The notes: generated from the letters alone by a model not told the origin. A stretch of 64,000 nucleotides of DNA from Candidatus Aquidulcis sp. (GCA_020723345.1 DYJA01000011.1:43349-107348); one strand, 5' to 3'. Positions 18,269 to 60,942 are shown, counted from the stretch's first letter. Translations and numbers: made by a program.

Positions 18269-18269
18269 G

Positions 18270-23339: not shown

Positions 23340-23374
23340 GATCGATCTGATCTTTAGCGTAACAGTTGCGCAAC

Positions 23375-25235: not shown

Positions 25236-25428
25236 ATTGCGCAACCGCTACGTTAGGGTTAGATTTTTTGTTCAAGGGCGAACGACTTTCAAACCCAACC
25301 AAACAGCTGATTCAATGTTGGTGTTCATGCCACGATTCTATGGGGTGCCGTCGAAACCCTGAGATGTTCCTGATTTTCAGCCGGCATAGGCAAGTCCTAA
25401 ATAGCCGGTTAGGTGAGGAGATTGTCAA

Positions 25429-26088
25429 ATGAACTTATGGAAAATTGGCTCGTTGATGGCTCTTGCTATGCTGGTAGCGTGCTCATTGCCGTTTATCAAT
25501 GCAGATGCGCCTACGCCCACCGCGTCGGCACCTGAAAGGAAGCCGGTAGCGCCAGTAGGTCAACCGACACAAGTATCTATTCCGACTTCGGTTTCTACTC
25601 GGCAAACTCTCGTACCTGGAGGAACGGCGACTTCTGCGGCTATCACACCAACGCCGCCAGCGACTGTTGCTTCAACTCCCTCATCCAATTCAGCCATACC
25701 CACGAATGCATTGCCCAGTGTAGTAGGACCTGTTTCTTGCGGAACGCGGGCGCAGACATCCGGCATGCTTATCATAGAAATCAAGAATTGGTTTGATGCT
25801 CCTCTCTCTTTCACTGTGGACTTGATGAGTTCGGTTAGTATTCCAGCGAAACCCTTTAACACTACGAACATACCCTATTGCTTTGAAATTCGCCCCGGCA
25901 GCCACAAATGGAAAGTATCTATTCGCCACCAAACACTAGAGGGCAACGCCGAAGTTCCCACGAGTGGGAAATTTGGACTAAGCTTCTGTCCAACCAAAGA
26001 GGACCAACCGGGCTATATCACAACGGAAGGTTGTGGATCGCGTTGTCTGGGCTGTCCTCCTGGGGATGACAATGGCGGTGGACATTGA
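25429..26088 (+). CDS. Lipoprotein with Pro/Thr-rich linker; first gene of the large same-strand array
   Basis: SD GGTGAGGAG. Lipobox MLVAC. Cys-rich C-terminus GCGSRCLGCPPGDD. Confidence 0.6.
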   Translation: MNLWKIGSLMALAMLVACSLPFINADAPTPTASAPERKPVAPVGQPTQVSIPTSVSTRQTLVPGGTATSAAITPTPPATVASTPSSNSAIPTNALPSVVGPVSCGTRAQTSGMLIIEIKNWFDAPLSFTVDLMSSVSIPAKPFNTTNIPYCFEIRPGSHKWKVSIRHQTLEGNAEVPTSGKFGLSFCPTKEDQPGYITTEGCGSRCLGCPPGDDNGGGH

Positions 26089-26145
26089 TCTGAAAACAGG
26101 ATTGCAGGCGCACAACGTTCATCAAATCCTCTGTGAGGGTGATTT

Positions 26146-28620
26146 ATGGTGCAACCCGAAAAATTAACTGTCGAAGAACTTGCAAAAGAGATCGGCAAGC
26201 AATTGCGAGGACCGTCCAAAGAAAAGGAACTCGTTGCAATCTCCGGTAAACTAAAAGAACTTCGCCGCCGCAAACCACGCGGCGCATTGGCAATCGAACG
26301 CGACCGCCTGGAGAGCGTGTTTCGCAAATTGGTCGAGGCGCGCAGTTCCAAATTGCAAGACCAGGTTCGCGCGACTTTGGATAAATTCAAAAAAGCGTTG
26401 ACTGCAGGCGAACCATCCCAAGAAGATTTGACGGGTAATACTCGGGCTGCCCTGAAAGAGTTGGAAGAGCTTGATCTCGCGCGCGAGGACGTTCGTGGAT
26501 GGCGTGACACGCTGAACCGGTTGGAACGCGAGCGCGAAGACCTATCCAAAGTGCTTGACATTGAGCGGGAAGTCAAAGAGCTTTGGGCTCGCGCCAAATC
26601 AACCGAAGAGCAAGGCGGCTTTGGCGATTCGATCGTCCAAGATTACAAAGATGCGTCAACCAAAATCCAGGGACACTTGAAAAGTAGCAAGATTGTTTCG
26701 CCGGCTCCAAAACGCCGACTCGGAAATCTTGCCGATCAAGCGGAACAGTTGGTCACTGAATCCGCGAACAAGCATACTTTGACTTTGACGCGTGCTGCAG
26801 GAAATGAAGTTGTCACGCAATTTAGAGCATTCCTTAAATCGAGCGCGGTGAATCCTGAAGAGCGCGTCACTTATTTTTTGACTCCGGACAAGAATGCCGG
26901 ATATGGTCTCCTGCCTGTCAAATCAGCCGTCGAAGTGGCGCGCGAGCACGTCCGACAGTTTTGGAGTGGCAAAGTCACCGAATACGTTGACCTTGCGCGC
27001 CACAAATTGCTAGACGAGCACGATCCATACGGCGCGCAAGGTCAACTGGACAAGTGGCAAGACTTGGAGGGCTTGCACGATCCGGAAATCATTGAGGCAG
27101 GATTAACTCTATCCGGCGATCCACAAGTTAGAATCAAAAGACTGCAAACCGAGATTGACGACAAGCGCAAAACTCGCCAAGATGCTGAAAAGTTCTGCCA
27201 CGACGCGATGAATGAAAGCGCTTTGTCCAAAGCGTATATAGCACTGCATTCGGCGGAACAGACAGATAAGTATACTCCGACGATCCAATCTACCAAAATC
27301 ATTTTGCAAGAGCGATTGGTTGAAGCGTTACGAGCATGTGCGGAATCCGCTGAGGTATCCTTGAACGAAGGCAGATGGGATGAGGTGGACGACGCACTTG
27401 AAACTGCTGACCAACTCAGTGCGCTTGATCCCGCAGTGAACTTTGGCGATTTGTCGAAACGGTTACAAAGAGTCCGTCGCATGCTGGATGATGTGCGCCA
27501 GGTGATCAACGATGTTCAAGCGCAAACGAGTCCAGCCAAAGCCAAGGGAAAATTGGAGACGTTCAAAGAGGCGTTCGAAAAAGGCTACGCCCAAAAACTG
27601 GAGCAATGGGAAGAAATCCGCCAAATCGAAATCGATCTGGAGGCACAGCTGGGCGATAGAAACTTCATAGATGGGATTCGCGCCCAGATCAACGCCAGCG
27701 CCACTTTGGACCAACTAAATAACGCGTTGGAAGATTGGAAACGCACGCGCCCCAAAATTCAAAAGGAGGATTTGCAAAAAGAATTCGATGCGCTCCGTAC
27801 GGAATTAGATGCTTATATTGGCTTTCGCACCGCCAATGATAAAAAATCAACTGATCTGGCAACCGCGCTTGACGCGCTGACACCCACCGTATTGAAGCAT
27901 CCTGTGCTTGGCGCCGATGCCAAGCATTTGTGGAATGACCTCAATACGCGCAAGGAAAAACAGCAAGATGCGGTGCAGGCAATGGCGGACATCAATAAAC
28001 TTATCACGACGGATCCGCGTCTGGCGTATGAAAAAGCGGGCGAATGGAAAGCGAAAGCCACCTTCCGCACGAGCGATTTTGTGCATCTGGAGCAACAAGC
28101 CCTGACTGAATTGGAGAAGCAGATCACCAGTGTCCTGAACCGTGAACTTGCAAAGGGATCATACTCGAGTGCAGTGCGCGCCAGAATTAAGGAACTGCTT
28201 GCAGAACTCAAAGAAATCGCTTCGGAGAAGGAACTGGAATACCGTAACAAATCCGAATTGCCTTGCGCCATCGCTGCGGCAGAGGAATTAGAAAATAAGG
28301 CGAAAACCCAAAAATCGGGTTGGGAGGGTGTTGTTCACGCCTGGGATGCGGCGCACGATCTGGCGGTTGGTTATCGCGACCACCGCGCTGATAATTTTTG
28401 GGAACATCGGCTGGAGGCGTACAAGAAGCAGATTCGGGAACAAGCCGCGCGCGCTGATTTCACGCAACAGATTGATCTATACAGCCAGTTGAACAGCGAG
28501 GTCAATGAGGCGGACGCCGAAGTGTGGATGTGGCTTGGTCAGACGCATCTTGAAGCGGCGAGCCAACTGATTACGCGTGATCAGAGCCAACCCTCGCCAC
28601 GGGAGACCCATGATGAGTGA
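26146..28620 (+). CDS. Large all-helical/coiled-coil protein (824 aa), unknown function; paralogue of 55672-57585
   Basis: Long ORF 57 nt after the lipoprotein gene. Residues from about 50 to 450 align with the DUF4062-headed protein. Confidence 0.7.
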   Translation: MVQPEKLTVEELAKEIGKQLRGPSKEKELVAISGKLKELRRRKPRGALAIERDRLESVFRKLVEARSSKLQDQVRATLDKFKKALTAGEPSQEDLTGNTRAALKELEELDLAREDVRGWRDTLNRLEREREDLSKVLDIEREVKELWARAKSTEEQGGFGDSIVQDYKDASTKIQGHLKSSKIVSPAPKRRLGNLADQAEQLVTESANKHTLTLTRAAGNEVVTQFRAFLKSSAVNPEERVTYFLTPDKNAGYGLLPVKSAVEVAREHVRQFWSGKVTEYVDLARHKLLDEHDPYGAQGQLDKWQDLEGLHDPEIIEAGLTLSGDPQVRIKRLQTEIDDKRKTRQDAEKFCHDAMNESALSKAYIALHSAEQTDKYTPTIQSTKIILQERLVEALRACAESAEVSLNEGRWDEVDDALETADQLSALDPAVNFGDLSKRLQRVRRMLDDVRQVINDVQAQTSPAKAKGKLETFKEAFEKGYAQKLEQWEEIRQIEIDLEAQLGDRNFIDGIRAQINASATLDQLNNALEDWKRTRPKIQKEDLQKEFDALRTELDAYIGFRTANDKKSTDLATALDALTPTVLKHPVLGADAKHLWNDLNTRKEKQQDAVQAMADINKLITTDPRLAYEKAGEWKAKATFRTSDFVHLEQQALTELEKQITSVLNRELAKGSYSSAVRARIKELLAELKEIASEKELEYRNKSELPCAIAAAEELENKAKTQKSGWEGVVHAWDAAHDLAVGYRDHRADNFWEHRLEAYKKQIREQAARADFTQQIDLYSQLNSEVNEADAEVWMWLGQTHLEAASQLITRDQSQPSPRETHDE
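26299..27500 (+). repeat. Left copy of a dispersed ~1.2-kb paralogous segment (partner 56364-57560)
   Basis: In two stretches I aligned by eye (26854-27003 versus 56921-57070, and 26584-26655 versus 56649-56720), about 9 bases in 10 are identical. Confidence 0.8.
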
Positions 28621-30538
28621 TTTCGAGTCCTTGACTTCTTTGACCCATTGCGAACGCGCCGTTGATTATGGTCAGCGCGGTCTAAAATGTAGCAATGCCC
28701 GCAAATGCCAATCTCAATTGAATGATCTAATTACTCAAGCCCAACGATACAAAAAGTTCGAGTCCAAGAAATTCGAAATCAGTCGCTTGCTCCGTGGTGA
28801 GGTTCACATTCACGAAGCCCAGACCGCCAAGAACACCTACCTCCAAGCGCGCGATGGCAACGATCCACTCATCGAGTTGCTTGACAAGTGGTGGCAAGCC
28901 GAACTCGAACGCGCCATCAGACAATTGCGCCAACAAAGCGCCAAGTTGCCGGAACACAGTTCGCCATTCACGCGGCTCGAACCGTGGATCTGTATCGTGA
29001 TCTTGACAGGACAATGGTCGGGGCAGACGCAAGATGAGATTGATCGCCTGATCAGATTGGCAGGTGCTCTCACCCGCCAAGTCCAAGCCGAAGTGGCTGA
29101 CAGCGCGGCAGCACTTCATTCCGAGTATGCGACCATTGATCCGAAACGGGATGTGCTTGCCAAGCAGATTGAGTTTTGTGAGCAATTGCGCCAAGACCTC
29201 GTCGCGCCACTGAGCGCGTTGCAATTTTGTCATGAAGCGATCAGCGAACGCGCGGTAGCCAGCAATAGTGTTCTAGAAAAACTTGCCACCCGGCTCAAGA
29301 GCAACAGCGAGGCGCTGGGGAACAGCGTAAGCGAACTTGACCGGTGGATGGAAGGCAAACTCAAGCCATTTCAAAGTGAATTGGGGCAAACGATTGATTT
29401 GATCCGGAATGCGCTGCGGCGCGGCAGTTTTGAGTTGGTGGATAATGTCTTCACCCGCGCCACCGCAAGTCCGACAGCGCCGCAACCTCCTGGCTTGCCG
29501 GAACCCGGAACCGCCTTTCAAGGTTTTACTGCGCATCTTTCCTATTTGTGGCTACGTGAATATGTCGAGGAGCAAAAAGGACGCTTACAGAAACAAAAAG
29601 AGCATAAGCAATATATTGATTGGGGATTCAAACTAGAAGTAGAAAGCGCGGTCCACCCTGCTGACCTTGACAAGCGGGTTGAGCAGTGGCAGCAAGACAA
29701 CAAGACCGCCAGCACGCCTGTGCAAACGCAATTCGATGGCTTTGTTTCTGATCTGCGCGTTTCATTGGCGCACGGGCACTATCCACTAGAGCGCATATTC
29801 CACCGACTCGAAGAGATGCGGACTCAAGAAGACAAGGATGAATGTCGTCTGCAAGCGCAGCTCGTTTATCAAGATCCGGAAACCCGTATGCGCTATGAAG
29901 GGCTAACCCAAATTGCGCCGATCATACAGAAAAAAACTCGACAGATCGAGCAAATTCGCAATTGGTTGGCGGAACATGGAATTCCTGAGCAAGGTGCCAC
30001 GATCCAGCATCGTTGCCCTGGCATCGCCGATTGGGATAGCGCCGAGAAAAGTATTAAGGCTGATCGCAAGATTGGCAAATTCTCTAGGGCGAGCCAACGA
30101 TGTTATGACCTCCGCGAGGGGTTAGACAATCCCCAAAGCGATAATCGTTTCACGGCTGAAGGGTTGTGGCCCCTTGAACGCGCGCGCCGCGAACTGGGAC
30201 GGTTGCCAACAGAAATCGGCAATCCGACCAGTGCGGTTATTCGCGCCTTAGATGCTAAACGGATTCAGCGGCTTGCCGAACTGGAACGGCAGATCGAAGA
30301 ATGTAGAAACCTGGAAAAAGATCTCGCGACGCGAAAGAAGCGCCAAGAGACTGCGCAAAAAGAAATCGAAGAATTGTACGCCGACCTTAGTAGCGCACAA
30401 AACAGTTTGCCATTTGGACGCGACAAGCGAGTCCGAATAGTGATAGACGAAATCCAAATCGCTATTGCAAAATATAGAGAGCAGGTTTGCGACGAGGATG
30501 ATTACATCACAAAGGCGCAAAGGGATTTGGGCCTGTAG
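28610..30538 (+). CDS. Large helical protein (about 640 aa), unknown function
   Basis: ATG 28610 overlaps the upstream stop (ATGATGAGTGA). No recognisable motif. Confidence 0.7.
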   Translation: MMSDFESLTSLTHCERAVDYGQRGLKCSNARKCQSQLNDLITQAQRYKKFESKKFEISRLLRGEVHIHEAQTAKNTYLQARDGNDPLIELLDKWWQAELERAIRQLRQQSAKLPEHSSPFTRLEPWICIVILTGQWSGQTQDEIDRLIRLAGALTRQVQAEVADSAAALHSEYATIDPKRDVLAKQIEFCEQLRQDLVAPLSALQFCHEAISERAVASNSVLEKLATRLKSNSEALGNSVSELDRWMEGKLKPFQSELGQTIDLIRNALRRGSFELVDNVFTRATASPTAPQPPGLPEPGTAFQGFTAHLSYLWLREYVEEQKGRLQKQKEHKQYIDWGFKLEVESAVHPADLDKRVEQWQQDNKTASTPVQTQFDGFVSDLRVSLAHGHYPLERIFHRLEEMRTQEDKDECRLQAQLVYQDPETRMRYEGLTQIAPIIQKKTRQIEQIRNWLAEHGIPEQGATIQHRCPGIADWDSAEKSIKADRKIGKFSRASQRCYDLREGLDNPQSDNRFTAEGLWPLERARRELGRLPTEIGNPTSAVIRALDAKRIQRLAELERQIEECRNLEKDLATRKKRQETAQKEIEELYADLSSAQNSLPFGRDKRVRIVIDEIQIAIAKYREQVCDEDDYITKAQRDLGL

Positions 30539-30548
30539 GAATTACACA

Positions 30549-31568
30549 ATGTACATCGCATTGATTTCAGACATTCACGCCAACTTGCAGGCATTGGAAG
30601 CGGTCGAGCAAGATGCGCGTCAACTGACGCAAGAAAACAGTCGCTTGGATCATAGAACCCCTGAATTGCGTTTTTGGTGTCTGGGTGACATTTTTGGACG
30701 CGGACCTAGCCCGGACCTTGTTTGGGAGCAGGTCACAGAAACCATCAGACCAGATTGCTGGGTAGTCGGGAACCACGATCAAGACCTCGTGCGTTTGATT
30801 GATGACCCCTCCATCGTCAGCGATGTGGCAAAGCGCAAGCAATGGGAAAAGGAGTTTAGGAGCGAGAGCGATGCGTGGACGATTGTTCAGCATTGGGTGT
30901 ATCTGCAAGACATCGGGTGGGCGGGCGAGATCAAGCGACGAATTGGCAACTTGCCGTCGATGGCTTCCCCTCTGCCGGGCGTTTATCTCGCGCATGGTAG
31001 TTTTGGCTTGAACAAACGCCCCCCGGCAGAGCGACCGAGAGAATGTGTGGAAGAACCAATCACACAGCATTACCAGGTCGCTACCACTTGGGAAACGCTA
31101 TGCGATTTTGTAAAGCATCCTAGCGCGATTCAAGGGTTTCAACGCATGCATCAAGAGCGGTGGGAAAAGCCCAGTGTGATGATTGTGGGGCATTCGCATG
31201 TGCGAAGCTTTTACAAATTTGAAAAAGACAAGTGGCATCCGTCCCTCGTCATCAATGATAGCAAGATCGGGGTGTGGCTTGATTTGCCCAATACCCCCAC
31301 CCAACCGGTTCTGATCAACCCGGGGAGCGTGGGTTCGCCGCGTCTGCCCAAAGATCATATCGCGCCGAAAGATCTCTGCGCCAGTTACGCCGTGCTAGAC
31401 TGGAACGCGCGTAATCCCCGAATTATGTTTCGCCGCGCACAGTATAATCGCAAGGAAACGATCAGATTATTGATAGAGGGGCAATATCCCTCCAAGGTGT
31501 ACGCAAAATTGAAAGACAATTGCACTCACTCTCATAGCCATCAGTGTCCATGGTGTAAGGAGTCATAA
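30549..31568 (+). CDS. Calcineurin-like metallophosphoesterase
   Basis: MYIALISDIHAN (DxH), GDIFGRGP (GDxxDRG-like), VVGNHD (GNHD), VGHSH. Starts 10 nt after the upstream stop. Confidence 0.85.
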   Translation: MYIALISDIHANLQALEAVEQDARQLTQENSRLDHRTPELRFWCLGDIFGRGPSPDLVWEQVTETIRPDCWVVGNHDQDLVRLIDDPSIVSDVAKRKQWEKEFRSESDAWTIVQHWVYLQDIGWAGEIKRRIGNLPSMASPLPGVYLAHGSFGLNKRPPAERPRECVEEPITQHYQVATTWETLCDFVKHPSAIQGFQRMHQERWEKPSVMIVGHSHVRSFYKFEKDKWHPSLVINDSKIGVWLDLPNTPTQPVLINPGSVGSPRLPKDHIAPKDLCASYAVLDWNARNPRIMFRRAQYNRKETIRLLIEGQYPSKVYAKLKDNCTHSHSHQCPWCKES

Positions 31569-31569
31569 C

Positions 31570-34197
31570 ATGTTCAAATTGAATCGAATGATTGTCTGGG
31601 TAGTTTGTTTGGTAGCCAGCGTCAGCGCATTATTCCTAACGATGCAATTTGCGACGCTAGGCGCGTTTGCCGCGCCTTCAACCTGCAACGAATTGCAGCT
31701 GATCTTTCTGGTTGACCAAAGCGGCTCGATGCGTGGTAATTCTGCTCATCCCGTCGTGAACGATCCGTTGAAATTGCGTTTCGAGGGTCCCAAGCACGCC
31801 GTCGAACGAATTGGTATCTTGCGTTATACCCAGTATCCGACGATGACGGTGCGCTTTGCATTGGTCAATTTCGGTACCGCTGCCGAGGTCGGAATTGATT
31901 GGACCAGCATCGCAGCCGCCAATGATGCCCAATGGACGCAACAATGGGGCATGCTTAGCCAAGCATTGGCGCCGGGCAAATGGGACACAGCGGATATGGG
32001 TAACACTAATTTTGTCGGCGCGTTTGAAAAGGCAGGCGAATTATTCAACCGGCTGCCCCAGCAAATTGGAAATTGCCCAACCCGCGCGGTGATTGTCCTG
32101 ACGGATGGACGGCCGCAGCTCCCTGATCTCGGGTTCTCGATGCCGGATCATTTTGCCAAACTGCAGAAATTTGTAGATACGTCCATGCCCCTCTCCGCCT
32201 ACAATATTTATGTGATTGCAATGAGCCAGGATGCTTTTTGGAATGAAACGGAATCTTATTGGCTTAAGGTCACCGGCAATCAAAAGAAGGATAACATCAA
32301 GACCGGTCTCGTCAATGACGATAAGGAGATTGGGGACCGGTTTGCCAAAATTATCCAAGAGTGGCTGCCCAGACCGCTTCAATGCTTTGATCCGGCGCGT
32401 GGAACGATTATCGTACCGCCATTTCTTCAACAAGTGTCCTTCACGCTGTACAAAGCGACGAGTCAACCTAATCATTTACGGATCGAAGATGAGCGAGGCA
32501 TCATTGAACCATCTCGCACCGATATCAAGACAACCATAGAAGGGTTTAATGGTCCAATCGAAACGGTACGTGTGGTTGGTCCCTTGCCTGGCGTATGGCG
32601 GATCAAGACTAACCTCCCGGTAGAAAAATGCGATATCCAGATGTTACCTATTCCAGCAAATGGTAACCTCTTGACCCCCGCCGTCAACAGGGGCTCGTTG
32701 CGCCAATTCAGCCAGTTTGATGTTTCATTTCAAATTACCGATTCAGCAGGTAATCCCTTGCCGGAATATGGGCCTGCCTACCCACTTCAGATCAAGGCAA
32801 GCGTGAACGACGTCTCTGGCATCGATGTTCTCAATGCGTTGCCGGATGGCAAAAATAAATTTACGGCGCCTTATATTCCAATTGAACCGGGGGCGCATAC
32901 CATTGACCTGTTGGCTACTTCGCGGGATGCTGAAGGCAAGACGATCGAGATTGTGAAAAGGCAAATTGGCGCATTTACTATTGAACCAGTCAAGTTGACA
33001 GTATCCGCAGGACCTACTGCGGGCAGTCGCATTCAGCAATATGCGCCAATTTCAACTACGCTGGCGTTGGTGGCAGGGGCAGACAATAAATCTGTCACGA
33101 TCACCTTGCCGGTGAATATCACCGCTAATCTCTTCGTCGCAGATAAATCGCAATCCCTGCCACTGGTTGCCGGAACCGATGGTGCCTGGACAGGTACCGT
33201 GACTCCTCAGCAAACTGGCTTGCATCGAATCCAATACGCCGGTTCGGTCACTTTGTCCGATGGTACCAAAAAGGAACTAGGCAAAAGTGACATTTCGTTC
33301 AATGTTTCTGCCGCAACATTACTCAAACCGCAAGTCCTGAAGCCGGCTCAACCGGTTTTCGAAGGCACGAACTTTTTGGGTCAACCCAATGGCTTGGTCT
33401 TTGAAGTCCAGATTGTGGATGCCACCGGCAAGATGGTTGAGCCATCCCAAGTAGTTGAAGGTAGCAACGATCAGGTCTTCAAGTTAGGCGTCACCGATTC
33501 AAGCCGCAGAGATCGGAGTGCGGAGTTGGTCTTGCAGCGCACCGCACAACCCGGTGTCTATCGCGCCGAAGCCAAGAATTTTGGAGCGGATGATTACACG
33601 ATCCGGATCTTGCCTGCCGCCAATCTCAAGCCGGACTTTGTGTGGGGCGATAAAGCGTGGACCTATAATTACAAGGGCACGCTCAATATGGGCGTATTTG
33701 GCTTGTTGGCAATCGCCGGTCTGATCTTGTTGGATATTGGGCAGTGGGTCGGCCACACCATTGCGGCACGCCCGAATCCGTTCCGGCGCGGTACGCTTGT
33801 GATCGCGCGCCGCGAGGTTTCCGATCCTGACGCGCCTGCGTCTGAAAGAGACGTAGACGAGTCACTCAAAGTAATGTGGCAACGCGCCTTGCCGTCATCT
33901 TCCAATTTCGCGCGATTCCTGAACGGTTGGGCGTGGCGAGGTGTGATTCCCTGGCACCATCAAGAGTTTGAAAAACGTTTGAACATTCGCAAGATCGAAG
34001 TGCGGAATCTCGAAACGCAACAGTCACGCGGCAATCGCATCAGTGGCAAAGTTCAAGCGAAGGTGGTTTATTCGACCAAGGCAGGCACCGCCTCCAAAGA
34101 GTATAAATTATCGCGGGGCGGAGTTGAAAGTGCAGCTGAGCTGCCGCTGTTTGGCTACATTATGTACTTGCGCGATCCAAGGGCAAATCAAGAATAA
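31570..34197 (+). CDS. Secreted vWA-domain protein with Ig-like repeats, one C-terminal TM helix and a ~150-aa cytoplasmic tail
   Basis: Signal peptide. MIDAS LVDQSGSM (31714-31728). VIVLTDGRP. TM helix GVFGLLAIAGLILLDIG. Starts 1 nt after the upstream stop. Confidence 0.85.
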   Translation: MFKLNRMIVWVVCLVASVSALFLTMQFATLGAFAAPSTCNELQLIFLVDQSGSMRGNSAHPVVNDPLKLRFEGPKHAVERIGILRYTQYPTMTVRFALVNFGTAAEVGIDWTSIAAANDAQWTQQWGMLSQALAPGKWDTADMGNTNFVGAFEKAGELFNRLPQQIGNCPTRAVIVLTDGRPQLPDLGFSMPDHFAKLQKFVDTSMPLSAYNIYVIAMSQDAFWNETESYWLKVTGNQKKDNIKTGLVNDDKEIGDRFAKIIQEWLPRPLQCFDPARGTIIVPPFLQQVSFTLYKATSQPNHLRIEDERGIIEPSRTDIKTTIEGFNGPIETVRVVGPLPGVWRIKTNLPVEKCDIQMLPIPANGNLLTPAVNRGSLRQFSQFDVSFQITDSAGNPLPEYGPAYPLQIKASVNDVSGIDVLNALPDGKNKFTAPYIPIEPGAHTIDLLATSRDAEGKTIEIVKRQIGAFTIEPVKLTVSAGPTAGSRIQQYAPISTTLALVAGADNKSVTITLPVNITANLFVADKSQSLPLVAGTDGAWTGTVTPQQTGLHRIQYAGSVTLSDGTKKELGKSDISFNVSAATLLKPQVLKPAQPVFEGTNFLGQPNGLVFEVQIVDATGKMVEPSQVVEGSNDQVFKLGVTDSSRRDRSAELVLQRTAQPGVYRAEAKNFGADDYTIRILPAANLKPDFVWGDKAWTYNYKGTLNMGVFGLLAIAGLILLDIGQWVGHTIAARPNPFRRGTLVIARREVSDPDAPASERDVDESLKVMWQRALPSSSNFARFLNGWAWRGVIPWHHQEFEKRLNIRKIEVRNLETQQSRGNRISGKVQAKVVYSTKAGTASKEYKLSRGGVESAAELPLFGYIMYLRDPRANQE

Positions 34198-34234
34198 GGT
34201 TCTCACATCACCAGTCTTACAAAGGAGGTAGACT

Positions 34235-38239: not shown

Positions 38240-38383
38240 GTTGGAGGATGCGTTCCACTATAAGCCAACTGCCATCAGCATTGTCAGAATAGCAAGAATC
38301 CGTTACTCACAAGAGGATTGGCATGTGGGAAAATAGAATTGAATGATCACATGCCAGTCCGATTGGAACACTGCGAGGTGTCC

Positions 38384-40690
38384 ATGTCTGCCGGGCTGCC
38401 ACAATTTCTTAACGATCGCGAAGCAGATAGAGATTTGCTCGATTTTACCCCATATACTGAGACACTGGTGGATATCGTTCGGGATGAGAATAACCACGGT
38501 CCCTTGGTGATTGGACTTTTCGGGACTTGGGGTAGCGGCAAAACATCATTGATGCATTTTGTCGAACACGCATTGCAACACCCTTCATCCGAGAATGTGC
38601 AACAGTTTCGGATTGTCTGGTTTGACGCTTGGAAATACGAAAAGGAAGAATCGCTATGGCGTGCGTTGTTGCTTCGCGTTGTTGATGCTCTGCGGGATCG
38701 CAACGAGGAAGGTGAGGATACCACTTCATTCAATCGTCGTCAACGAATTGAGAATCTTGAGCAACGCTTGTACCGTGACGTTGAATGGGAAGAAAAAGCC
38801 GGAATTACGATAGACTGGGCAAAGTTGGGACGGTTTGGTTTAGGTGGCGCAATCAAGCTATCCTTTGCTTTTGTGCCAGGTCTATCGCATCTGGTCGAAA
38901 CCGTAAAGTCAGCGCAGGGCGCGCTGGGCAAAGCTGAAGGCATAAACGATCTGTTCGATACTTTTCGGCGGAATGTGGTCACGCATCACCAAGCGCAGCT
39001 AAACTCAATCGAACAGTTTCAAAATGAATTTGGAAAACTCGTTCAGCAGTATGTTATATCCCAAAATCAGCGTCTAGTTGTGTTTATTGATGATCTTGAC
39101 CGTTGTCTACCCGAAAAGGCAATTGAAGTCCTTGAGGCAATCAAACTCTTTCTCGACGTCAAAGGATGTATTTTCTTGCTGGGACTTGACCAAGACGTAA
39201 TTGCGCGGGGCATCAAAGTCAAGTACCGAGGGTTTGCTAGTGCATCGGCAAATGATGAATCCGCGATACCTATTGATGGCGTGCAGTATCTTGAAAAGAT
39301 TATTCAACTGCCCTTTCGTTTGCCCAAGATTGAGCCGCAGGAGATGAAACCATTTATCAAGAATCTGTTGGAATTTTCCGATGTCCGCTGCGCGGATGTT
39401 TTTGCTGAAGGGTTGGAAACTAATCCACGCAAGGTCAAACGCGCAATCAATATTTTCCTATTTGTCTCTCGTCTGGCTGAGCGTCGCAAACTCCGAATTT
39501 CCCAGGTTCGCCTCGCCAAGGTGATTGTCATCTATCACAATCACCCGATCTTGTATGATCGCTTACGCAAAAACCCCGCACTGTTGCGGGATGTAGAAAA
39601 ATATTTTGAGGAGCAACTCCCCAAGTCTTCCAAAGATCAAACGCACAATCTCGAAGCTCCAACGAACCAAACTATTACTCCACCAGTTGGAGAGCATTTG
39701 CTTGCCGACGATGCTTTAAGGCGCGTGATGACTCTCTATTTGCGAGACTACGATGCTTGTTTTCAAACAGCAGACTATACCGAACTCGACTCGTATTTCA
39801 CATTGACTCGCGGAACTGTTATTGATCCTCTGGTACAATCCGCTAAAAATGTTACGACTATGTCAACGGCACTCGGTTTTCCGATTCCGATTTTCGTGCG
39901 GATTCCCGAAGGCGAATTTCGGATGGGCACTTCGGATGAAGATATTTCACGCTTGGCGCAAATGCCAGGAACGCAAACCTGGGCGAGAGAATCGCAAGAG
40001 AAAGAATACTTTAAAGAAGAGAAACCGGATCGTTGCGTATATCTGAATGAATTCGAAATCGCGAAATACCCTGTGACCTATGAACAATATCAGGCGTTCA
40101 TTAAGGCGACGCGACATCCTGCTCCAAGAGATTGGTCAGGTGATTTGTTTCGGGATGGGTTTGAATCGCATCCTGTGGCCAATGTGAGTTGGATTGATGC
40201 TATAGCATACTGTCGTTGGTTGACCGAACAATTACGCAACATCAATAATCTACAGAACAACGAAATAGTTCGGTTGCCGATCGAAGCAGAATGGGAAAAA
40301 GCCGCTTCATGGGATGCTTTGGGACAAAAGAAACGCATTTGGCCATGGGGCGACACTTGGCAAAGTGAAAACTGCAATACAAGAGAAAAAGGAATCGGCA
40401 CCACAACTCCTGTTGGAAAATTCTCGCCCAAGGGAGATAGCCCTTATGGCATTGCCGACATGGCAGGCAACGTGTGGGAATGGTGTGCCGATTGGTACCA
40501 ATCTGATTATTATGAAAATGCTTCCAACAGGAATCCCTATAACGCATCTGCTGGACAATATCGTGTCGCACGAGGGAGTTCGTGGTATGGCGATCAGGCA
40601 GATGCAAGATGCGCTTTTCGGTTTTCGTATGCTCTCAATGTAAGTGGTTTTGATTTGGGTTTTCGTTGCGTCAAAGGTCAACCAGTGTAA
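38384..40690 (+). CDS. KAP-family P-loop NTPase fused to a C-terminal formylglycine-generating-enzyme (FGE/SUMF1, C-lectin-like) domain
   Basis: Walker A GLFGTWGSGKTS. Walker B/KAP box VVFIDDLDRCLPEKAIEVLEAIKLF. FGE motifs HPVANVSWIDAIAYCRWL, GNVWEWCADWY, VARGSSW. Start uncertain: 38384 has a GAGG SD, and the track gives TTG at 38318. Confidence 0.85.
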   Translation: MSAGLPQFLNDREADRDLLDFTPYTETLVDIVRDENNHGPLVIGLFGTWGSGKTSLMHFVEHALQHPSSENVQQFRIVWFDAWKYEKEESLWRALLLRVVDALRDRNEEGEDTTSFNRRQRIENLEQRLYRDVEWEEKAGITIDWAKLGRFGLGGAIKLSFAFVPGLSHLVETVKSAQGALGKAEGINDLFDTFRRNVVTHHQAQLNSIEQFQNEFGKLVQQYVISQNQRLVVFIDDLDRCLPEKAIEVLEAIKLFLDVKGCIFLLGLDQDVIARGIKVKYRGFASASANDESAIPIDGVQYLEKIIQLPFRLPKIEPQEMKPFIKNLLEFSDVRCADVFAEGLETNPRKVKRAINIFLFVSRLAERRKLRISQVRLAKVIVIYHNHPILYDRLRKNPALLRDVEKYFEEQLPKSSKDQTHNLEAPTNQTITPPVGEHLLADDALRRVMTLYLRDYDACFQTADYTELDSYFTLTRGTVIDPLVQSAKNVTTMSTALGFPIPIFVRIPEGEFRMGTSDEDISRLAQMPGTQTWARESQEKEYFKEEKPDRCVYLNEFEIAKYPVTYEQYQAFIKATRHPAPRDWSGDLFRDGFESHPVANVSWIDAIAYCRWLTEQLRNINNLQNNEIVRLPIEAEWEKAASWDALGQKKRIWPWGDTWQSENCNTREKGIGTTTPVGKFSPKGDSPYGIADMAGNVWEWCADWYQSDYYENASNRNPYNASAGQYRVARGSSWYGDQADARCAFRFSYALNVSGFDLGFRCVKGQPV

Positions 40691-40726
40691 ATAAACGAAT
40701 CAAGAATAACTTGATAGGAGCCTTTT

Positions 40727-41686: not shown

Positions 41687-41691
41687 AAATT

Positions 41692-44600: not shown

Positions 44601-45234
44601 TGTGGAGATCTGGAATCTGGTTGGGCGGCGATGTACAGCAAAGTTGTCAGGTCACAATTTAACAATTTATGGTGTCAATTTTAGTTACAATGACGAGTAT
44701 CTAGTAACTGCGAGTGATGATAGCAAAGTGTGTGTTTGGGATGTGTCTACTGGGAAATGCCTGAAAAATTTATCTACTCACAAGAGTTGGGTCAGACAAG
44801 CCATATTTAGTCCAGACAACAAATATATTGCAACAGCCGGTGGGGACAATACGGCCAAAATCTGGGACGCGGAAACTGGCCAAGTTACTGTCGATGTGCT
44901 ACACGCAGCTCCGGTGAATACTGTAGCATTTAGCCCCAATGGACAACTTGTTGTTTCGGCAAGTTTGGACAATACTGTGAAATTATGGGATGTTTTGTAT
45001 GGTTGGCTACTTGAAGAGTTTCACGGACATACTAAACCTGTGCAGTGTGTTGCATTTAGTCCAGATGGAAACTATGTCGCCACAGCAAGTCTGGATGGGA
45101 TAGGACGATTATACTCAATCAAAGAATATCAGCCCGAACAGATTCGAACATTGGCTCGTGAGAAAATATCTAGAAACAAAAAAGAGCTCACTCCTGCTGA
45201 AAGAAGAAGATATTTGCACGACTGGGTAACTTGA
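41692..45234 (+). CDS. STAND-class NTPase (NACHT/nSTAND-like) with about 16 WD40 repeats
   Basis: ATG lies 5 nt after the SIR2 stop. YKGLAPFSESDANIFFGRE. Walker A VVYGASGVGKSS. Walker B LLVILDQFE. Repeated GH..V..v.FSPDG..laTaS.D.T.r.W units. Confidence 0.9.
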   Translation: MSIAHTIAKPYKGLAPFSESDANIFFGREQECEVVAANLLTSRFTVVYGASGVGKSSLLRAGVVHYLSTLAQKRLQSSTEERNTPEFIVIVFDRWSGNLVGGLSEQIRQVLSPFVQSYDLGFQPNDSIPDLVDKWKQATRSTLLVILDQFESYLAYHPEVDEFTTQLSDAIRTEGLGINFLISIREDSLAKLDRFEGYIPNLFDNNIRINRLGRTPAKEAIENPIRKFNEINKTEIRIEPELVETVLNEVTAGKIMGVVEGSRFSISSKDEVDAPYLQLVMERLWKTEIEAGSDVLRLKTLHEVGYAESIVRKHLDDKMEELDTPEQNIAAQIFRYLVTPSRAKVAYSASDLAAYTNLKKNEITLVLEKLSSTDSRIVRLLSPLSNQHPAIRYEIFHDALSAAVLDWRARFVQKQNAYIQKQRSIAFARELAANSISQMQQDQDLSVLLALEALRIEEIPQAYSALRLAVVRSYMRYIIRDHLRPVKCVAYSPDGQYLLTASDDCTARIWTARYRPVNLMQHESPVLGAVYSPDSKFILTFSSKRAFVWTNKGNLSHELKGHSEDITCATFSADGQFVATSSKDMTARVWTTKVGTPIAQMVGHSRSVNCITFNPDDEFVATGSDDGMVKIWEASSGKLRTELRGHEGPVDHISYYPKGIADNELLLTSGQDNIARVWNTRSGLCLQALRGHTGIITSSLFNNDGTRILTASEDGTVRIWDTHMGMLLAVLRGHTDPVLDVLFTPDGKFIITTSGDETSRVWDAIIGDCILVLRGHRGAVRTATVSGKGNIIVTGGEDAKVRIWQSHLMRAPLELRGYEDQLLGISFGHDNNCVVAFGTNAIARTWEVTSGKSRLVLDGHESRLRSVSFSYHNNQILTSSDDGTARLWSATTGQSLGTLRGHLGSVYNALFSPDDRLIVTSGVDKTVRIWDLDKKDLNSQILVQGDNISCLSISHNGKFLAVARGNQSAVVEIWNLVGRRCTAKLSGHNLTIYGVNFSYNDEYLVTASDDSKVCVWDVSTGKCLKNLSTHKSWVRQAIFSPDNKYIATAGGDNTAKIWDAETGQVTVDVLHAAPVNTVAFSPNGQLVVSASLDNTVKLWDVLYGWLLEEFHGHTKPVQCVAFSPDGNYVATASLDGIGRLYSIKEYQPEQIRTLAREKISRNKKELTPAERRRYLHDWVT

Positions 45235-45280
45235 CTCCAAAATCCTATCAAGCAATTTCCGACCGAACCGGAGGATCACC

Positions 45281-50629: not shown

Positions 50630-50707
50630 AGATGCGGGATTCCCCGTCGTACAGGTGCTCGACTGGGAGACCTTGCCTGATCGCATCACCATGTTTATGG
50701 AGCAACA

Positions 50708-54406: not shown

Positions 54407-54468
54407 TTCTGTTGTATTATGGCAGAACGCAATCCGATTGTTATGGCTAGCCGTAGGAGACCAATCAA

Positions 54469-55479
54469 ATGTCAGATCAAGAAAATGAACAAACCCAGAA
54501 TGGGACTCCAACTCCAGATAACCCTTTGCATTCCGCCAGACCTTCAGCCAGGCGGAGGGATGGGTTTCTGCAGTACACCGCCAATCGTTTGAATGGTTTG
54601 GAAAAAGAGTTGGAAGAGAAATTGCGTCAACTGGATGAGTCAGAGAGCGATCTCTACAAATACGCACAACGACGCTTCCGTTTCATGTTGTTATTATGGA
54701 CATTCCTGTTCCTCCTCCTCGCCGGTTTGGCTCTCCTGGGTTGGACCCTCATCGGACCTTCAATGCTGGAAGTAGTAGCATTGCGCGCTACGGTGGCTGA
54801 TTTGCAGGCTAAAATGGAGGCGGTGCCAATCAGTAGGAACACACCGATGGCAGAGCCAACGCGGATGCCTACGCTGACTATTGCGCCAATATCAGCGCCA
54901 ACTCGGACGCCGGTGCTAACTATTACACCAACGCCAACGGCAACGACTATCCCTACAAATACTCCGACCCCCTCACCAACAACTGTAGCGGTAATTGCTG
55001 GGAAAAAGTACAAGTTGACCAAGCCCGACAACTTGATGGTTTCGGCAAGTGAGGATCCCAAACAGATCATCATCTTCCAAATTCCCATAACGGCGACACT
55101 ACAAACCGTTGAGGGGTCCAAAGGCAATTATGCCCAAGTGACATTAGAGGTATGGGTAGTCAAGGCAATTATTGGTCCTGGTGCTAAGACACCTGACGAT
55201 CCAGAGGCTAAACACAGTTGCAAACTTGTCATGGCGAAGCCTGACTATATTTCTGTAGAAGCAAGATTCGACGTAGATTCACCGTCATCCGTGCCCAATT
55301 GGTTACCTGGCGATCCGAAAGAACGCGAAGAGGCGAAAAACAAAGTGTCGCCTCGACTTGAGCCGGGCGCATTTTCGCTTGATTATCCTTGCACGAAGGG
55401 GGACTACCCCCAAGGCGATTGGGCAAAGATCCGAATCACTGGTTGGGTAAAGATCAGGAATCTTGAGGAGATTAAATGA
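54469..55479 (+). CDS. Single-pass membrane protein: cytoplasmic coiled coil, TM helix, Pro/Thr-rich linker, extracytoplasmic domain
   Basis: SD GTAGGAGA. TM helix FMLLLWTFLFLLLAGLALLGW. PT-rich ..PTLTIAPISAPTRTPVLTITPTPTATTIPTNTPTPSPT.. Confidence 0.6.
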   Translation: MSDQENEQTQNGTPTPDNPLHSARPSARRRDGFLQYTANRLNGLEKELEEKLRQLDESESDLYKYAQRRFRFMLLLWTFLFLLLAGLALLGWTLIGPSMLEVVALRATVADLQAKMEAVPISRNTPMAEPTRMPTLTIAPISAPTRTPVLTITPTPTATTIPTNTPTPSPTTVAVIAGKKYKLTKPDNLMVSASEDPKQIIIFQIPITATLQTVEGSKGNYAQVTLEVWVVKAIIGPGAKTPDDPEAKHSCKLVMAKPDYISVEARFDVDSPSSVPNWLPGDPKEREEAKNKVSPRLEPGAFSLDYPCTKGDYPQGDWAKIRITGWVKIRNLEEIK

Positions 55480-55671
55480 CTGCCGAGTCCTTGAAAATTG
55501 ATCGCACTTTACTCAGGGCGTGGAATGAATGAAACGCTGCGTTCTGCACCCTTTGCCGTAACTCCACAATACTTTTCCCCGCTATCTCACACGCGCTACG
55601 CCAGATCGGGGTGAATACTCCAACGAATCATCACAATTTGCAAGGTGTCATCATGGTCAAAGGATTTCGTA

Positions 55672-57585
55672 ATGAAGATCTTCGTCAGCTCTACCTTCGA
55701 TGATCTAGAACCGTATCGCCGAAGCGTGCTTTCGGTTATTGATACGCTACGCGCCAATGGCCACAATATCCAATGGCTGGGTATGGAATCTCTTAGCGCG
55801 GCTGATAGGCCATCCCTTGACGAATGTCTTGCAAAGGTTGGTGAAGCAGATCTCTATTTGGGTTTCCTTGGTATGCGCTATGGTTCAAAACCTTCTGGCT
55901 CGGCGATCTCATATACTGAAGCCGAGTTCAGGCGTGCAACCAAACGCAGAATGCCTCGTCTACTATTTTTGATTGACGAGAGGAATGCCAATATCAAACC
56001 GATTCACTGCGAACATGATCCTGATTCACTGAGACAACTGAATGAGTTGAAGGAGGAGTTCAAGAGGATTCGCCAAATCTCTTTCTTTAGATCACCTGAG
56101 CATCTTGCCGAGCAAGTTCTGACTGCGCTTGACCGCTACTTGCCACGCAAATCATCCGCGCGCTCAAAATCAACTCGGCGAAGTAGGTTCACGACGGCGA
56201 AAAAGAAACAGATGCTGCAACAAGCAAGGGAGCGCGCCCAAATTGAAGAATTGACGAAGAATATCCGGCGTGAGCTGAAAAGTCCCAAAAGGGACTTGCG
56301 CGCAATCGTGGCTGACTTCCGCAGGTTAGATAAACTCAGTCCCGTAGGCGAATTGGCGGACGAGCGAGATCGCCTGGAGAAAATTTATCGCAAGCAACTT
56401 ACTGAACGCGGCGCTAAACTACAAAAGCAAATCCAAGATGCACTAGCCAATCTCAAGAAATCCGTTGACAACAGTGTATTGCCCAAAGAGGATTGGTCCG
56501 GTCAAACGAATACGGCGATCAACGAATTGCGCGCTTTGGGGCTTGCCGCCGCGGATCTGCCTGCTTGGAAAGAAACCTTGCGTCGCCTGGAACGCGAGGG
56601 GGAGGATCTCGCCAAGTATCTTGAAATCGCCCGCGAAATCCAGGAGTTTTGGGATCGCGCCAAGTCAACCGAAGAGCAAGGTGGCTTTGGCGAGTCGATT
56701 GTCCGAGATTATAAGGAAGCGTTCACCAAGATTCAAGGGCACTGCAAGGGCAGTATGATTGTTTCGCCAGCGCCAAAACGCCGGCTCGAAATTCTTGCTG
56801 TCCAAGCGGAACGTTTGCTCAACGAATCCGCAGACAAACACACTTTGACCTTGACCCGCGCGGCAGGGAATGAAGTCGTCACACAATTCAAAATGTTTCT
56901 CAAGTCGAACGAGAGCAATCCTGAAGAGCGGGTCACCTATTTTTTGACGCCAGACAAGAATGCCGGGTATGGTCTCCTGCCTTTCAAGTCAGCCGTTGAA
57001 GTGGCGCGCGAGCACGTCCGCCAATTTTGGAGCGACAAAGTCACCGAATACGTTGACCTTGCGCGTCACGTATTGTTAGACAATCACGATCCATACGGTG
57101 CGCAAGCTCAACTGGACAAGTGGCAAGATCTGGAGGGCCTGAACGATCCAGAGCTCGTTGCCGTAGGGTTAACGCTTTCGGGTGAACCACAAATCAAGAT
57201 CAAAAGACTGCAAGTCGAGATTGACGACAAGCGCAAAATTCGCCAAGATGCTGAGGGGTTCTACCAAAACGCGGTGATGGAAGGAGATTTGGAAAAGGCA
57301 TATTCCCTTGTGCGATTGGCGATCGAGACCGATCCTTACACACTCAGTATCGTATACACTCGAAGGACAATCCAAGATCGAATTCTAGTGCAAGCCGAGA
57401 AACTCAACGGGCGCGCAGAGAATTGGTTGCAGGAGAAGGATTGGGCAAACGCTCAGGAAGCAATAACCCAAGCCGCGCGCTTGATCGCGCTTGATCCCGA
57501 ACTGCATGCCGATCTGCTGGCTGACCGTATTGCGGAAACACAGCGGAGCATTCGTACATATCAGAGACATAATCAAGCGATTTGA
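55672..57585 (+). CDS. DUF4062-type N-terminal domain fused to a helical body paralogous to 26146-28620
   Basis: MKIFVSSTFDDLEPYRRSVLSVIDTLRANGHNIQWLGMESLSA..CL..VGEADLYLGFLGMRYGS matches the DUF4062 pattern as I recall it. The remainder aligns with the 26146 protein. Confidence 0.75.
   Translation: MKIFVSSTFDDLEPYRRSVLSVIDTLRANGHNIQWLGMESLSAADRPSLDECLAKVGEADLYLGFLGMRYGSKPSGSAISYTEAEFRRATKRRMPRLLFLIDERNANIKPIHCEHDPDSLRQLNELKEEFKRIRQISFFRSPEHLAEQVLTALDRYLPRKSSARSKSTRRSRFTTAKKKQMLQQARERAQIEELTKNIRRELKSPKRDLRAIVADFRRLDKLSPVGELADERDRLEKIYRKQLTERGAKLQKQIQDALANLKKSVDNSVLPKEDWSGQTNTAINELRALGLAAADLPAWKETLRRLEREGEDLAKYLEIAREIQEFWDRAKSTEEQGGFGESIVRDYKEAFTKIQGHCKGSMIVSPAPKRRLEILAVQAERLLNESADKHTLTLTRAAGNEVVTQFKMFLKSNESNPEERVTYFLTPDKNAGYGLLPFKSAVEVAREHVRQFWSDKVTEYVDLARHVLLDNHDPYGAQAQLDKWQDLEGLNDPELVAVGLTLSGEPQIKIKRLQVEIDDKRKIRQDAEGFYQNAVMEGDLEKAYSLVRLAIETDPYTLSIVYTRRTIQDRILVQAEKLNGRAENWLQEKDWANAQEAITQAARLIALDPELHADLLADRIAETQRSIRTYQRHNQAI
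56364..57560 (+). repeat. Right copy of the dispersed ~1.2-kb paralogous segment (partner 26299-27500)
   Basis: See the left copy. The two copies are about 30.06 kb apart in the same orientation. Confidence 0.8.
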
Positions 57586-58377: not shown

Positions 58378-58401
58378 AGTTTTGTGACACGCGAGGTAAC
58401 A

Positions 58402-60939: not shown

Positions 60940-60942
60940 GTG

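Follow-up and report, generated by a model that had tools for sequence, protein, structure and literature searches.

A conserved operon of Chloroflexota-type bacteria encodes predicted vWA receptors and divergent tubulin-like proteins and is interrupted by immune-type genes in Candidatus Aquidulcis sp.

What kind of machine is encoded by a run of same-strand genes in which two giant tubulin-like proteins stand beside von Willebrand factor A (vWA) proteins, a phosphoesterase and a kinase-like protein? The run lies in a stretch of 64,000 nucleotides (nt) from Candidatus Aquidulcis sp. (GCA_020723345.1, DYJA01000011.1:43349-107348), referred to here in its entirety as the window, and comprises 13 consecutive plus-strand open reading frames (ORFs) at positions 25429-57585. 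All of them were present exactly where the initial annotation of this DNA had placed them. The same was true of the 11-nt overlap ATGATGAGTGA at 28610-28620, in which the stop of the 824-amino-acid (aa) gene A overlaps the start of gene B, and of six intergenic gaps of 10, 1, 37, 36, 5 and 46 nt, which were read directly from the sequence; the other gaps measure 78, 78, 62 and 165-192 nt. Pfam agreed with that annotation's motif-based calls for the phosphoesterase, both vWA domains, the PD40 propeller, both tubulin-like parts and DUF4062. Its proposal that the 13 genes form a single system did not hold, because three of them are low-GC inserted genes and because a sigma factor and CHAT protease module beyond the run recurs with the operon. 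Instead, seven genes, designated A to G, form a conserved operon of Chloroflexota-type bacteria, and this operon is interrupted here by an inserted block of immune-type genes. The assignment to Chloroflexota was made because of the homologues of E, of which 287 were found; the named ones came from metagenome-assembled genomes (MAGs) of Chloroflexota, many of them Anaerolineae. We consider it about an even chance (roughly 0.5) that the operon core is an envelope-spanning signalling and cytoskeletal machine of the FtsZl1–vWA type in its Chloroflexota form.

The claim that two giant proteins, E and F, have a tubulin/FtsZ fold had called for structure prediction and structural comparison, and it was sustained by both for E and by Pfam for each protein. 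The family Tubulin_2 (Pfam PF13809), which is the FtsZl1 family, was located at residues 9-372 of E, followed by a helical region of about 900 aa and a C-terminal double zinc ribbon, and at residues 821-1185 of F (E 1.5e-27). F also contained VWA (E 9e-26) and PD40 (E 4e-19) domains, and its propeller was recognised by the NCBIfam model propeller_TolB (E 2.5e-16). An AlphaFold2 model of residues 1-470 of E, built on a 47-sequence alignment, had a mean predicted local distance difference test score (pLDDT) of 81 and a predicted template-modelling score (pTM) of 0.74. When this model was compared with the PDB by Foldseek, all of the best 50 matches (50/50) were FtsZ, tubulin, gamma-tubulin, CetZ or TubZ, and the top match was Aquifex FtsZ 2r6r (E 1.6e-4, probability 1.0, more than 300 aligned columns).

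The two tubulin-like domains were distinguished by their nucleotide-binding loops. E has a T1-like loop (IIGLGGTG) and a T4-like loop (GGTGAG), both of which are kept in its homologues. In F the T1 loop is present, and the threonine of the signature motif is replaced by methionine, phenylalanine or leucine in every F homologue in which the motif was located, yielding the T4 variants GGMSGT, GGFGSG, GGFSSA and GGLGSG. This systematic difference, GGTGAG in E versus GG(M/F/L)xx in F, fits a division of labour between paralogues. A BLASTP comparison showed that E and F have the tubulin-like domain alone in common, with 27% identity, and BLASTP gave no matches among A, B, G and D or between D and F. 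From these features, E is predicted to be a soluble paralogue of the tubulin-like domain of F that retains the canonical GTP-binding signature.

A hydropathy scan of D and F agreed with the membrane-spanning topology that had been proposed for the system. In D, which had been described as a secreted vWA protein with a metal-ion-dependent adhesion site (MIDAS) of the form DQSGS and a C-terminal transmembrane helix, we found the VWA_2 domain, a signal-like segment at residues 7-25, about 680 aa predicted to lie outside, a transmembrane segment at residues 705-723 and a cytoplasmic tail of about 150 aa; a beta-rich region accompanies the secreted vWA domain. F, whose MIDAS motif is DRSSS, showed a signal-like segment at residues 11-29 and transmembrane segments at residues 396-414, 425-443 and 761-779. 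These positions place the vWA and PD40 domains outside, with a transmembrane hairpin between them, and the tubulin-like and helical domains inside after the third segment, so that the combination of vWA, PD40, transmembrane and tubulin-like parts originally read in this protein was recovered by the Pfam and transmembrane scans together. The predicted topology thus puts metal-dependent vWA domains of both D and F outside the cell, together with the TolB-like propeller of F, and F is predicted to run via its third transmembrane segment straight into a cytoplasmic tubulin/FtsZ-fold domain. When F was compared with four orthologues, conservation was 87, 61, 56 and 55% for PD40 and 71, 35, 32 and 29% for the C-terminal helical domain. 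The best-kept parts were the extracellular PD40 and vWA domains, PD40 foremost, and the C-terminal helical domain was the least conserved of the large domains. The high conservation of PD40 and vWA points to a conserved ligand, self or envelope rather than a fast-changing foreign one.

The remaining core genes encode a kinase, a phosphoesterase and a pair of helical proteins. G, annotated at first as kinase-like, was missed by a single-sequence Pfam scan, which gave no kinase match, but the reading was borne out when a 15-sequence profile of its N-terminus was searched against the PDB, with PknB 3f61 (E 9e-16) as the first match and hundreds of Hanks kinases after it. The glycine-rich loop (G28), K47, E64, D147 (DRK) and D166 (LDWN) were invariant in the alignment, and the kinase domain (residues ~20-300) is followed by a helical tail of about 950 aa. 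G therefore contains a real kinase domain, probably an active one, judging from these residues. C, called a calcineurin-like phosphoesterase and matched by Pfam Metallophos, has the metal-binding motifs DIH, GD, GNHD and GHSH in its translation; its closest PDB matches were 3rqz and 3qfm, and its NCBIfam YfcE score was under the cutoff. The profile match of G to PknB and the PDB matches of C agree with the presence of a kinase and a phosphoesterase within one operon.

A and B, each longer than 600 aa, had been described as helical proteins with no recognisable motif, and indeed neither had a match in Pfam, NCBIfam or PADLOC. The N-terminal half of A, termed A-N here, was modelled by AlphaFold2 as an all-alpha domain with a pLDDT of 92, and the model had no significant structural neighbour in the PDB. 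An exhaustive HMMER search found 38 representatives of the A-N family among 1.84 billion cluster representatives; it was used in place of a word-indexed search, which had returned protein I alone and had missed the 63% orthologue of A. A and B together correspond to the split form of a single gene of ~1450-1500 aa, which is fused in three related loci (1465-1481 aa in L004, L005 and L082), and most representatives of the A/B family are also ~1450-1500 aa long; the arrangement is a gene fission or fusion polymorphism inside the family. A is syntenic in L002-L006 and L012. Among the representatives, A-N is fused to Pkinase in P0134 and P0138 and to ParA-like and Trans_reg_C domains in P0128, and the Pkinase–A-N fusions tie A/B functionally to the kinase G.

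To place the operon among its relatives, gene maps were compiled from contigs encoding homologues, from 76 loci of GTDB representative genomes and from tblastn or ORF maps. A recurring array was observed, consisting of A/B (one gene of ~1470 aa, or split), C, D, E, F and G, the last sometimes as two genes (in L081 and L083, judged by size only). The order C-D-E-F-G, usually with A/B ahead, was found on a dozen or more independent contigs at 25-80% protein identity, and most related loci were from Anaerolineae or metagenome assemblies. In at least 30 loci the gene immediately ahead of E is D. At least 15 related loci keep C within the operon, in some of them at another position, and G is downstream of F in most related loci and upstream of D in L011 and L026. 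In the permuted loci L032 and L039 a metallophosphoesterase and a kinase are still in the operon. Among named bacteria, Longilinea arvoryzae KOME-1 (L047) has D, E and F, and Ca. Chloroploca mongolica (L005) has the full set; versions without part of the core were seen in Acidobacteriota, Aminicenantes and Elusimicrobia-type MAGs. The recurrence of the gene order in other genomes, on which the initial annotation had staked its reading, refutes chance juxtaposition for the seven core genes, and in these maps G, C and A/B are co-inherited with the tubulin-like and vWA proteins.

Two separate Tubulin_2 loci occurred in several MAGs (L007/L037, L026/L062 and L017/L076), from which it follows that the family is paralogous within genomes. 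An apparent E–F fusion ORF of 3513 aa in Ca. Chloroploca mongolica (L005, NZ_SIJK02000002.1, 9977-20518) was rejected as an artefact: a scaffold gap of 100 N lies within it, and ahead of that gap the zinc-ribbon segment is tandemly repeated.

Upstream of the operon, on the opposite strand, the window encodes an extracytoplasmic function (ECF)-type sigma factor, a 257-aa anti-sigma-like protein and a TPR-CHAT caspase-like protease (Table 1). The catalytic dyad of the protease is intact, with His in LHFATHA and Cys in LSACQT. The 257-aa protein had no Pfam or NCBIfam match, and its putative anti-sigma role is deduced from its zinc-binding anti-sigma (ZAS)-type motif. Homologues of the protease were found upstream of related operons in L030 (full length, phmmer E 5e-110), L032 (E 2e-64), L039 and, weakly, L023. 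Sigma factor homologues were found upstream on the opposite strand in L004 (40%), L030 (39%), L032/L039 and L033. In L030, sigma, anti-sigma-like and TPR-CHAT genes are all present in the same order, the anti-sigma-like homologue (30% identity, E 1e-12) lying between the other two. Among 83 ORFs flanking related loci, Pfam matches to Sigma70_r4 were counted four times and those to CHAT, Pkinase and NB-ARC three times each. The module at 14996-19928 is probably a partner of the operon.

Table 1. Features of the window discussed in the text, with the evidence for each
Feature	Position	Strand	Evidence
Accessory, 219 aa, lipoprotein-like	25429..26088	+	LVAC lipobox-like N-terminus, Pro/Thr-rich linker (translation)
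A, 824-aa predicted all-helical scaffold	26146..28620	+	AlphaFold2 model; rare N-half domain A-N
B, 642-aa helical protein	28610..30538	+	11-nt overlap with A
C, metallophosphoesterase	30549..31568	+	Pfam Metallophos E 5.8e-10
D, predicted vWA type-I membrane receptor	31570..34197	+	Pfam VWA_2; transmembrane scan
E, predicted soluble FtsZl1/Tubulin_2 protein, 1334 aa	34235..38239	+	Pfam Tubulin_2 E 5e-35
KAP NTPase–FGE-sulfatase (inserted)	38318..40690	+	Pfam KAP_NTPase and FGE-sulfatase
SIR2_2 (inserted)	40727..41686	+	Pfam
nSTAND1 and 12 WD40 repeats (inserted)	41692..45234	+	Pfam
F, predicted vWA–PD40–tubulin-like multi-pass receptor, 1782 aa	45281..50629	+	Pfam, NCBIfam, transmembrane scan
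G, Hanks-type Ser/Thr kinase, 1232 aa	50708..54406	+	15-sequence profile vs PDB
H, 336-aa predicted single-pass membrane protein	54469..55479	+	Transmembrane segment at 72-90 (hydropathy scan)
I, DUF4062 head and A-N copy	55645..57585	+	Pfam DUF4062 E 2e-21; start probably ATG 55672
TPR-CHAT caspase-like protease, 1116-aa ORF	14996..18346	-	Pfam CHAT residues 853-1115 (E 5e-59) and TPRs
257-aa anti-sigma-like protein	18270..19043	-	HxxxCxxC motif (HLQSCDRC), ZAS-type, from translation
ECF-type sigma-70 factor	19083..19928	-	NCBIfam sigma70-ECF 56 bits (cutoff 42.9); Pfam Sigma70_r2, r4
IS4-family insertion sequence, not part of system	21197..22684		18-nt terminal inverted repeats, 94% complementary
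Second element, 1.9 kb, 589-aa ORF, outside system	23355..25255		35-nt inverted arms, 80% complementary

The inserted block at 38318..45234 (~7 kb) separates E from F and has a guanine-plus-cytosine (GC) content of 0.43-0.48, compared with 0.54-0.57 in the adjoining E and F genes. The stop of E and the start of F lie 7,041 nt apart here and 3,576 nt apart in L002, the closest relative (80% identity); 22 other loci have no more than 275 nt between the two genes. In L002 the junction (14275-17676) holds four different ORFs of 206, 304, 366 and 203 aa, none of which had a Pfam or PADLOC match, and two extra genes occupy the junction in Longilinea arvoryzae. The KAP–FGE, SIR2_2 and nSTAND1–WD40 genes, to which the initial annotation had given no names, were next to E or F in no related locus compared. 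The differing cargo marks the E–F junction as a site of cargo gain and exchange. At the domain level, PADLOC matched the KAP NTPase as QatA/PifA-like and the SIR2/STAND pair as ThsA, SIR2 and HEAT-ARM_XIII. No direct repeats or att-like sites of at least 40 nt flank the cargo, and a promoter and terminator scan across it gave counts close to chance expectation. The SIR2_2 gene is followed after 5 nt by nSTAND1–WD40 (40727-45234), an arrangement that resembles a two-gene SIR2 and STAND immune-type pair. In the first cargo gene the FGE-sulfatase domain is C-type-lectin-like and fused to the KAP NTPase; published work discusses such fusions among the targets of diversity-generating retroelements in multicellular bacteria. 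An element of this type was considered for the present FGE domain and rejected, as no template or variable repeat was present in the window.

Downstream of G, gene I had been described as DUF4062-headed, in agreement with Pfam, and its remainder proved to be a copy of A-N: its residues 196-636 match residues 5-447 of A with 58% identity (E 7e-170), a duplication visible also as a DNA repeat. The head aligned to the solved structure of KpSwz (PDB 10wc, E 1.4e-5), with Glu94 (TEAEF) at the position of the catalytic E97 (E97A). DUF4062 has been described as a TIR-like NADase in phage defence in 2026 preprints (bioRxiv 10.64898/2026.05.01.722283). Like I, the DUF4062 defence proteins Swarozyc, Evangelion and NIR combine a TIR-like head, whose catalytic position is a glutamate, with a large auxiliary domain at the C-terminus; unlike in Swarozyc, the auxiliary domain of I is a copy of operon protein A, and the NADase role of I is a prediction from its sequence. 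Among the 38 A-N family representatives, I alone was annotated with DUF4062, and six others that were scanned contained none (0/6), so the joining of an A-N duplicate to a DUF4062 NADase domain appears to be a single-lineage event. The chimera suggests that the binding partner of A-N can also gate an NADase. Gene I sits behind the gap of 165-192 nt. Protein H gave no match in a Pfam scan; weakly similar proteins are encoded immediately ahead of D in L024 (E 6e-9) and L011 (E 1e-4), and H is a possible accessory component of the operon. The 219-aa lipoprotein-like gene at the other end of the run had a relative only in L002 (59% identity).

Other genes around these operons were variable. The insertion sequence upstream of the window operon encodes a DDE_Tnp_1/Nterm_IS4 transposase (21206-22639). 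The second element is probably also mobile; its 589-aa ORF, possibly an undescribed transposase, had no Pfam match, and the element was absent from related loci. The flanks have a cell-wall or envelope flavour, with a protein of three PA14, a crystallin and an Amidase_3 domain at 12060-14576 and, at 57709-63453, genes for a lipoprotein-like 222-aa protein, a 546-aa PD40 protein with repeats like those of F, a 254-aa protein and an M23 peptidase (60925-63453) with an F5/8-type-C-like domain; none of these flank genes is kept beside the related loci compared. In an Anaerolineae MAG, a WXG100 protein follows the operon (L004, 23544-23819), and downstream of G in L003, L081 and L083 there are proteins with weak or faint TSP3_bac matches, that of L003 with a weak Big_1 match as well. 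The WXG100 and TSP3_bac-like proteins may be lineage-specific accessories.

The initial annotation knew of no named system with this composition, a statement that does not stand, since operons joining FtsZl1, vWA proteins and kinases, and a theme of two tubulin and two vWA proteins, were described earlier at the level of computer prediction. Makarova and Koonin (2010, Biol Direct 5:33, PMC2875224), in the part of their account compared here, described FtsZl1 with an adjacent vWA protein that has an intact MIDAS and is often secreted or membrane-bound, listed as further partners Ser/Thr kinases, a diverged P-loop GTPase, OmpA proteins and lineage-specific families, proposed a membrane-remodelling machine and named Chloroflexi among the hosts. 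Like those operons, the one in the window has a giant protein that begins with a divergent FtsZ/tubulin domain, continues through a long helical stretch and ends in an alpha-helical C-terminus. The shared features also include an adjacent vWA protein bearing MIDAS, signal peptide and transmembrane segment (D, with a vWA domain also in F), a Ser/Thr kinase (G) and many lineage-specific membrane proteins. By its predicted products the window operon is the Chloroflexota version of this operon class. It differs in having no OmpA protein by Pfam and no P-loop GTPase (no Walker A), in the fusion of a second tubulin-like paralogue into the multi-pass vWA–PD40 receptor F, and in its metallophosphoesterase, A/B scaffolds and sigma/anti-sigma-like/TPR-CHAT genes, none of which is mentioned in that part of the account.

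Kaur, Burroughs, Iyer and Aravind (2020, eLife 9:e52696) placed tubulin and vWA neighbourhoods in GAP1-N2 DO-GTPase conflict systems. In Firmicutes their theme comprises two tubulin proteins and a pair of vWA proteins, of which one is multi-pass with its vWA domain outside; they further described a kinase, PP2C and vWA theme and an enrichment in multicellular bacteria including Chloroflexi. The window operon shares with that theme two tubulin-domain proteins with helical or coiled-coil tails and two vWA proteins, as well as the combination of kinase, phosphatase and vWA, which there occurs in a related subset. Unlike in that theme, the defining DO-GTPase is absent, the phosphatase is calcineurin-like rather than PP2C, and the second tubulin is fused to a receptor. 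No Walker A or NKxD motif was found in A, B, C, D, E, F, G or I, and no P-loop Pfam match was obtained outside the inserted genes. A, B and G had no GAP1 Pfam match, but the Micromonospora tubulin locus L075, used as a positive control, likewise had no GAP1 or DO-GTPase match, so the missing matches are not evidence against GAP1 here.

TerY-P is one of the systems covered by PADLOC. A likeness to it had been suggested, and the operon does combine vWA, kinase and phospho-hydrolase genes as TerY-P does; however, C belongs to Metallophos and not to PP2C and no PADLOC match to TerY-P was obtained, so the operon is not a TerY-P system. It differs further in that the vWA domains are predicted to be extracellular on large membrane proteins and that two giant tubulin-like proteins are added. 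C, D, F and G were all without a PADLOC match to any model. The upstream module resembles another known arrangement, in which the TPR-CHAT protease Csx29 cleaves the sigma inhibitor Csx30 (CASP-sigma; Craspase; Strecker et al. 2022, PMC10028731). Both place genes for a protease with TPRs followed by CHAT, for a small inhibitor-like protein and for an ECF sigma factor together next to a sensor machine. The sensor here would be the vWA/tubulin-like machine and not Cas7-11, and the 257-aa protein has a ZAS-like HxxxCxxC motif. No earlier description was found of five features: the fusion of receptor and tubulin-like domain in F, whose signature is systematically altered; the metallophosphoesterase; the family of A/B; the sigma/anti-sigma-like/TPR-CHAT partner; and the cargo site.

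If the operon core is an envelope-spanning signalling and cytoskeletal machine, it could operate as follows. The outside domains of D and F would recognise a conserved ligand, which is probably either part of the cell's own envelope or another of these domains. Occupancy of the ligand site would change the way in which F, anchored in the membrane and carrying an altered GTP loop, nucleates or caps E assemblies, while G and C would set the threshold through phosphorylation and dephosphorylation and A/B would serve as a scaffold for the kinase. Where the output module is present, TPR-CHAT would cleave the anti-sigma-like protein and free the sigma factor, as in Csx29–Csx30–CASP-sigma, and in this genome the DUF4062–A-N chimera could tie the state of the machine to NAD+ depletion.

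Several observations weigh against this reading. The Foldseek template-modelling scores for E were modest (0.30-0.47), and a sequence profile of E searched against the PDB returned no tubulin or FtsZ, so that fold support for E comes from the AlphaFold2 model and Foldseek. Both results fit the extreme divergence of the family reported by Makarova and Koonin. That the tubulin-like domains of E and F bind GTP, hydrolyse it and polymerise is predicted function, and the T7 catalytic loop was not located in either protein; the T6-H7-T7 elements of FtsZl1 could not be identified or aligned by Makarova and Koonin either. No experimental study of any FtsZl1/Tubulin_2 protein was found in the literature searched. 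C, given its nearest relatives (YfcE, 3rqz and 3qfm), may be a nucleotide phosphodiesterase instead of a protein phosphatase. The sigma/CHAT module stands beside only ~5 of ~30 loci and in the window lies 5.5 kb from the operon, across two mobile elements. Finally, among the 38 A-N representatives the NADase chimera is restricted to this genome, and it may act independently of the operon.

The alternative that fares best is a dedicated anti-phage or conflict system, in which the surface vWA and propeller domains or A-N would detect infection, tubulin-like polymers would contain it or activate a response, and CHAT and NADase would bring about abortive infection in a filamentous multicellular host. 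We regard it as a tentative possibility that deserves to be kept in view. Tubulin and vWA neighbourhoods belong, in the classification of Kaur et al., to conflict systems with an enrichment in multicellular bacteria, TPR-CHAT recurs with the operon, and an NADase domain with a catalytic Glu, from a family whose members give phage defence, is fused to a system-specific domain. The cargo at the E–F junction is of immune type here and different in L002, NB-ARC/AAA_16 proteins adjoin three related loci, and both the presence of two copies in several genomes and the partial-core versions outside Chloroflexota are in keeping with such a role. However, no PADLOC model matches a core protein, and the core is without a canonical toxic effector. 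PADLOC on the 83 flanking ORFs, within the 25 top-ranked of 34 matched families, gave one MkoA, TPR-repeat matches for two of the ORFs and otherwise only kinase-type matches. The NADase chimera is known from this genome alone, and the inserted SIR2/STAND and KAP genes, absent from all relatives, say little about the core. The extracellular domains are the most conserved and not hypervariable, and conserved ectodomains, together with the location of related loci outside recognisable defence islands, argue against an arms-race receptor.

A more elaborate version of the signalling reading, which we find doubtful, joins these elements: a ligand change at the surface vWA and TolB-like propeller domains of F and D would nucleate submembrane filaments of E and F that recruit A-N proteins, thereby switching on TPR-CHAT (with release of the ECF sigma factor) and, here, the DUF4062 NADase, to form an immune or damage platform. 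If true, a multicellular bacterium would possess, in a cytoskeleton-based form, a prokaryotic equivalent of the supramolecular assemblies used in immune signalling.

Less favoured still, and in our view unlikely, is a machine for membrane remodelling or vesicle biogenesis, or an integrin-like link between adhesion and cytoskeleton among the cells of a filament, with F and D as a receptor pair. F (propeller and vWA) and D (vWA, beta-sandwich, one transmembrane segment and tail) are taken by us to resemble integrin alpha and beta chains. Remodelling was the original prediction of Makarova and Koonin, and the conserved extracellular domains, the many membrane components and the nearby cell-wall enzymes (PA14–Amidase_3 and M23 peptidase) would suit either function. 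The Pfam scans, however, contained no lipid-binding, ESCRT-like, dynamin-like or OmpA component, the cell-wall genes of the window are not kept beside related loci, and a caspase-like protease with sigma and anti-sigma partners suits signalling better than structure. Chance juxtaposition of same-strand genes draws some colour from the three genes in the middle, which are not in the conserved set, as may also be true of H and I. It is almost certainly wrong, given the colinearity of C-D-E-F-G (with or without A/B) in a dozen or more independent contigs down to ~25% identity and the fusions that link genes (A with B, Pkinase with A-N, and vWA with tubulin in F).

FtsZl1/Tubulin_2 is the most divergent branch of the tubulin superfamily and, fifteen years after its prediction, was without experimental function in the literature searched. 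The operon offers an architecture in which a tubulin-fold domain is predicted to be wired covalently across the membrane to vWA and propeller domains and paired with a soluble paralogue bearing the GTP signature. If E and F co-assemble under receptor control, they would provide a direct outside-in link from a surface receptor to a tubulin-type cytoskeleton in bacteria. The sigma/anti-sigma-like/TPR-CHAT partner and the NADase chimera supply hypotheses for the output of the system, and these bear on whether such loci are immune devices of multicellular bacteria, as in the classification of Kaur et al., or envelope-maintenance machines.

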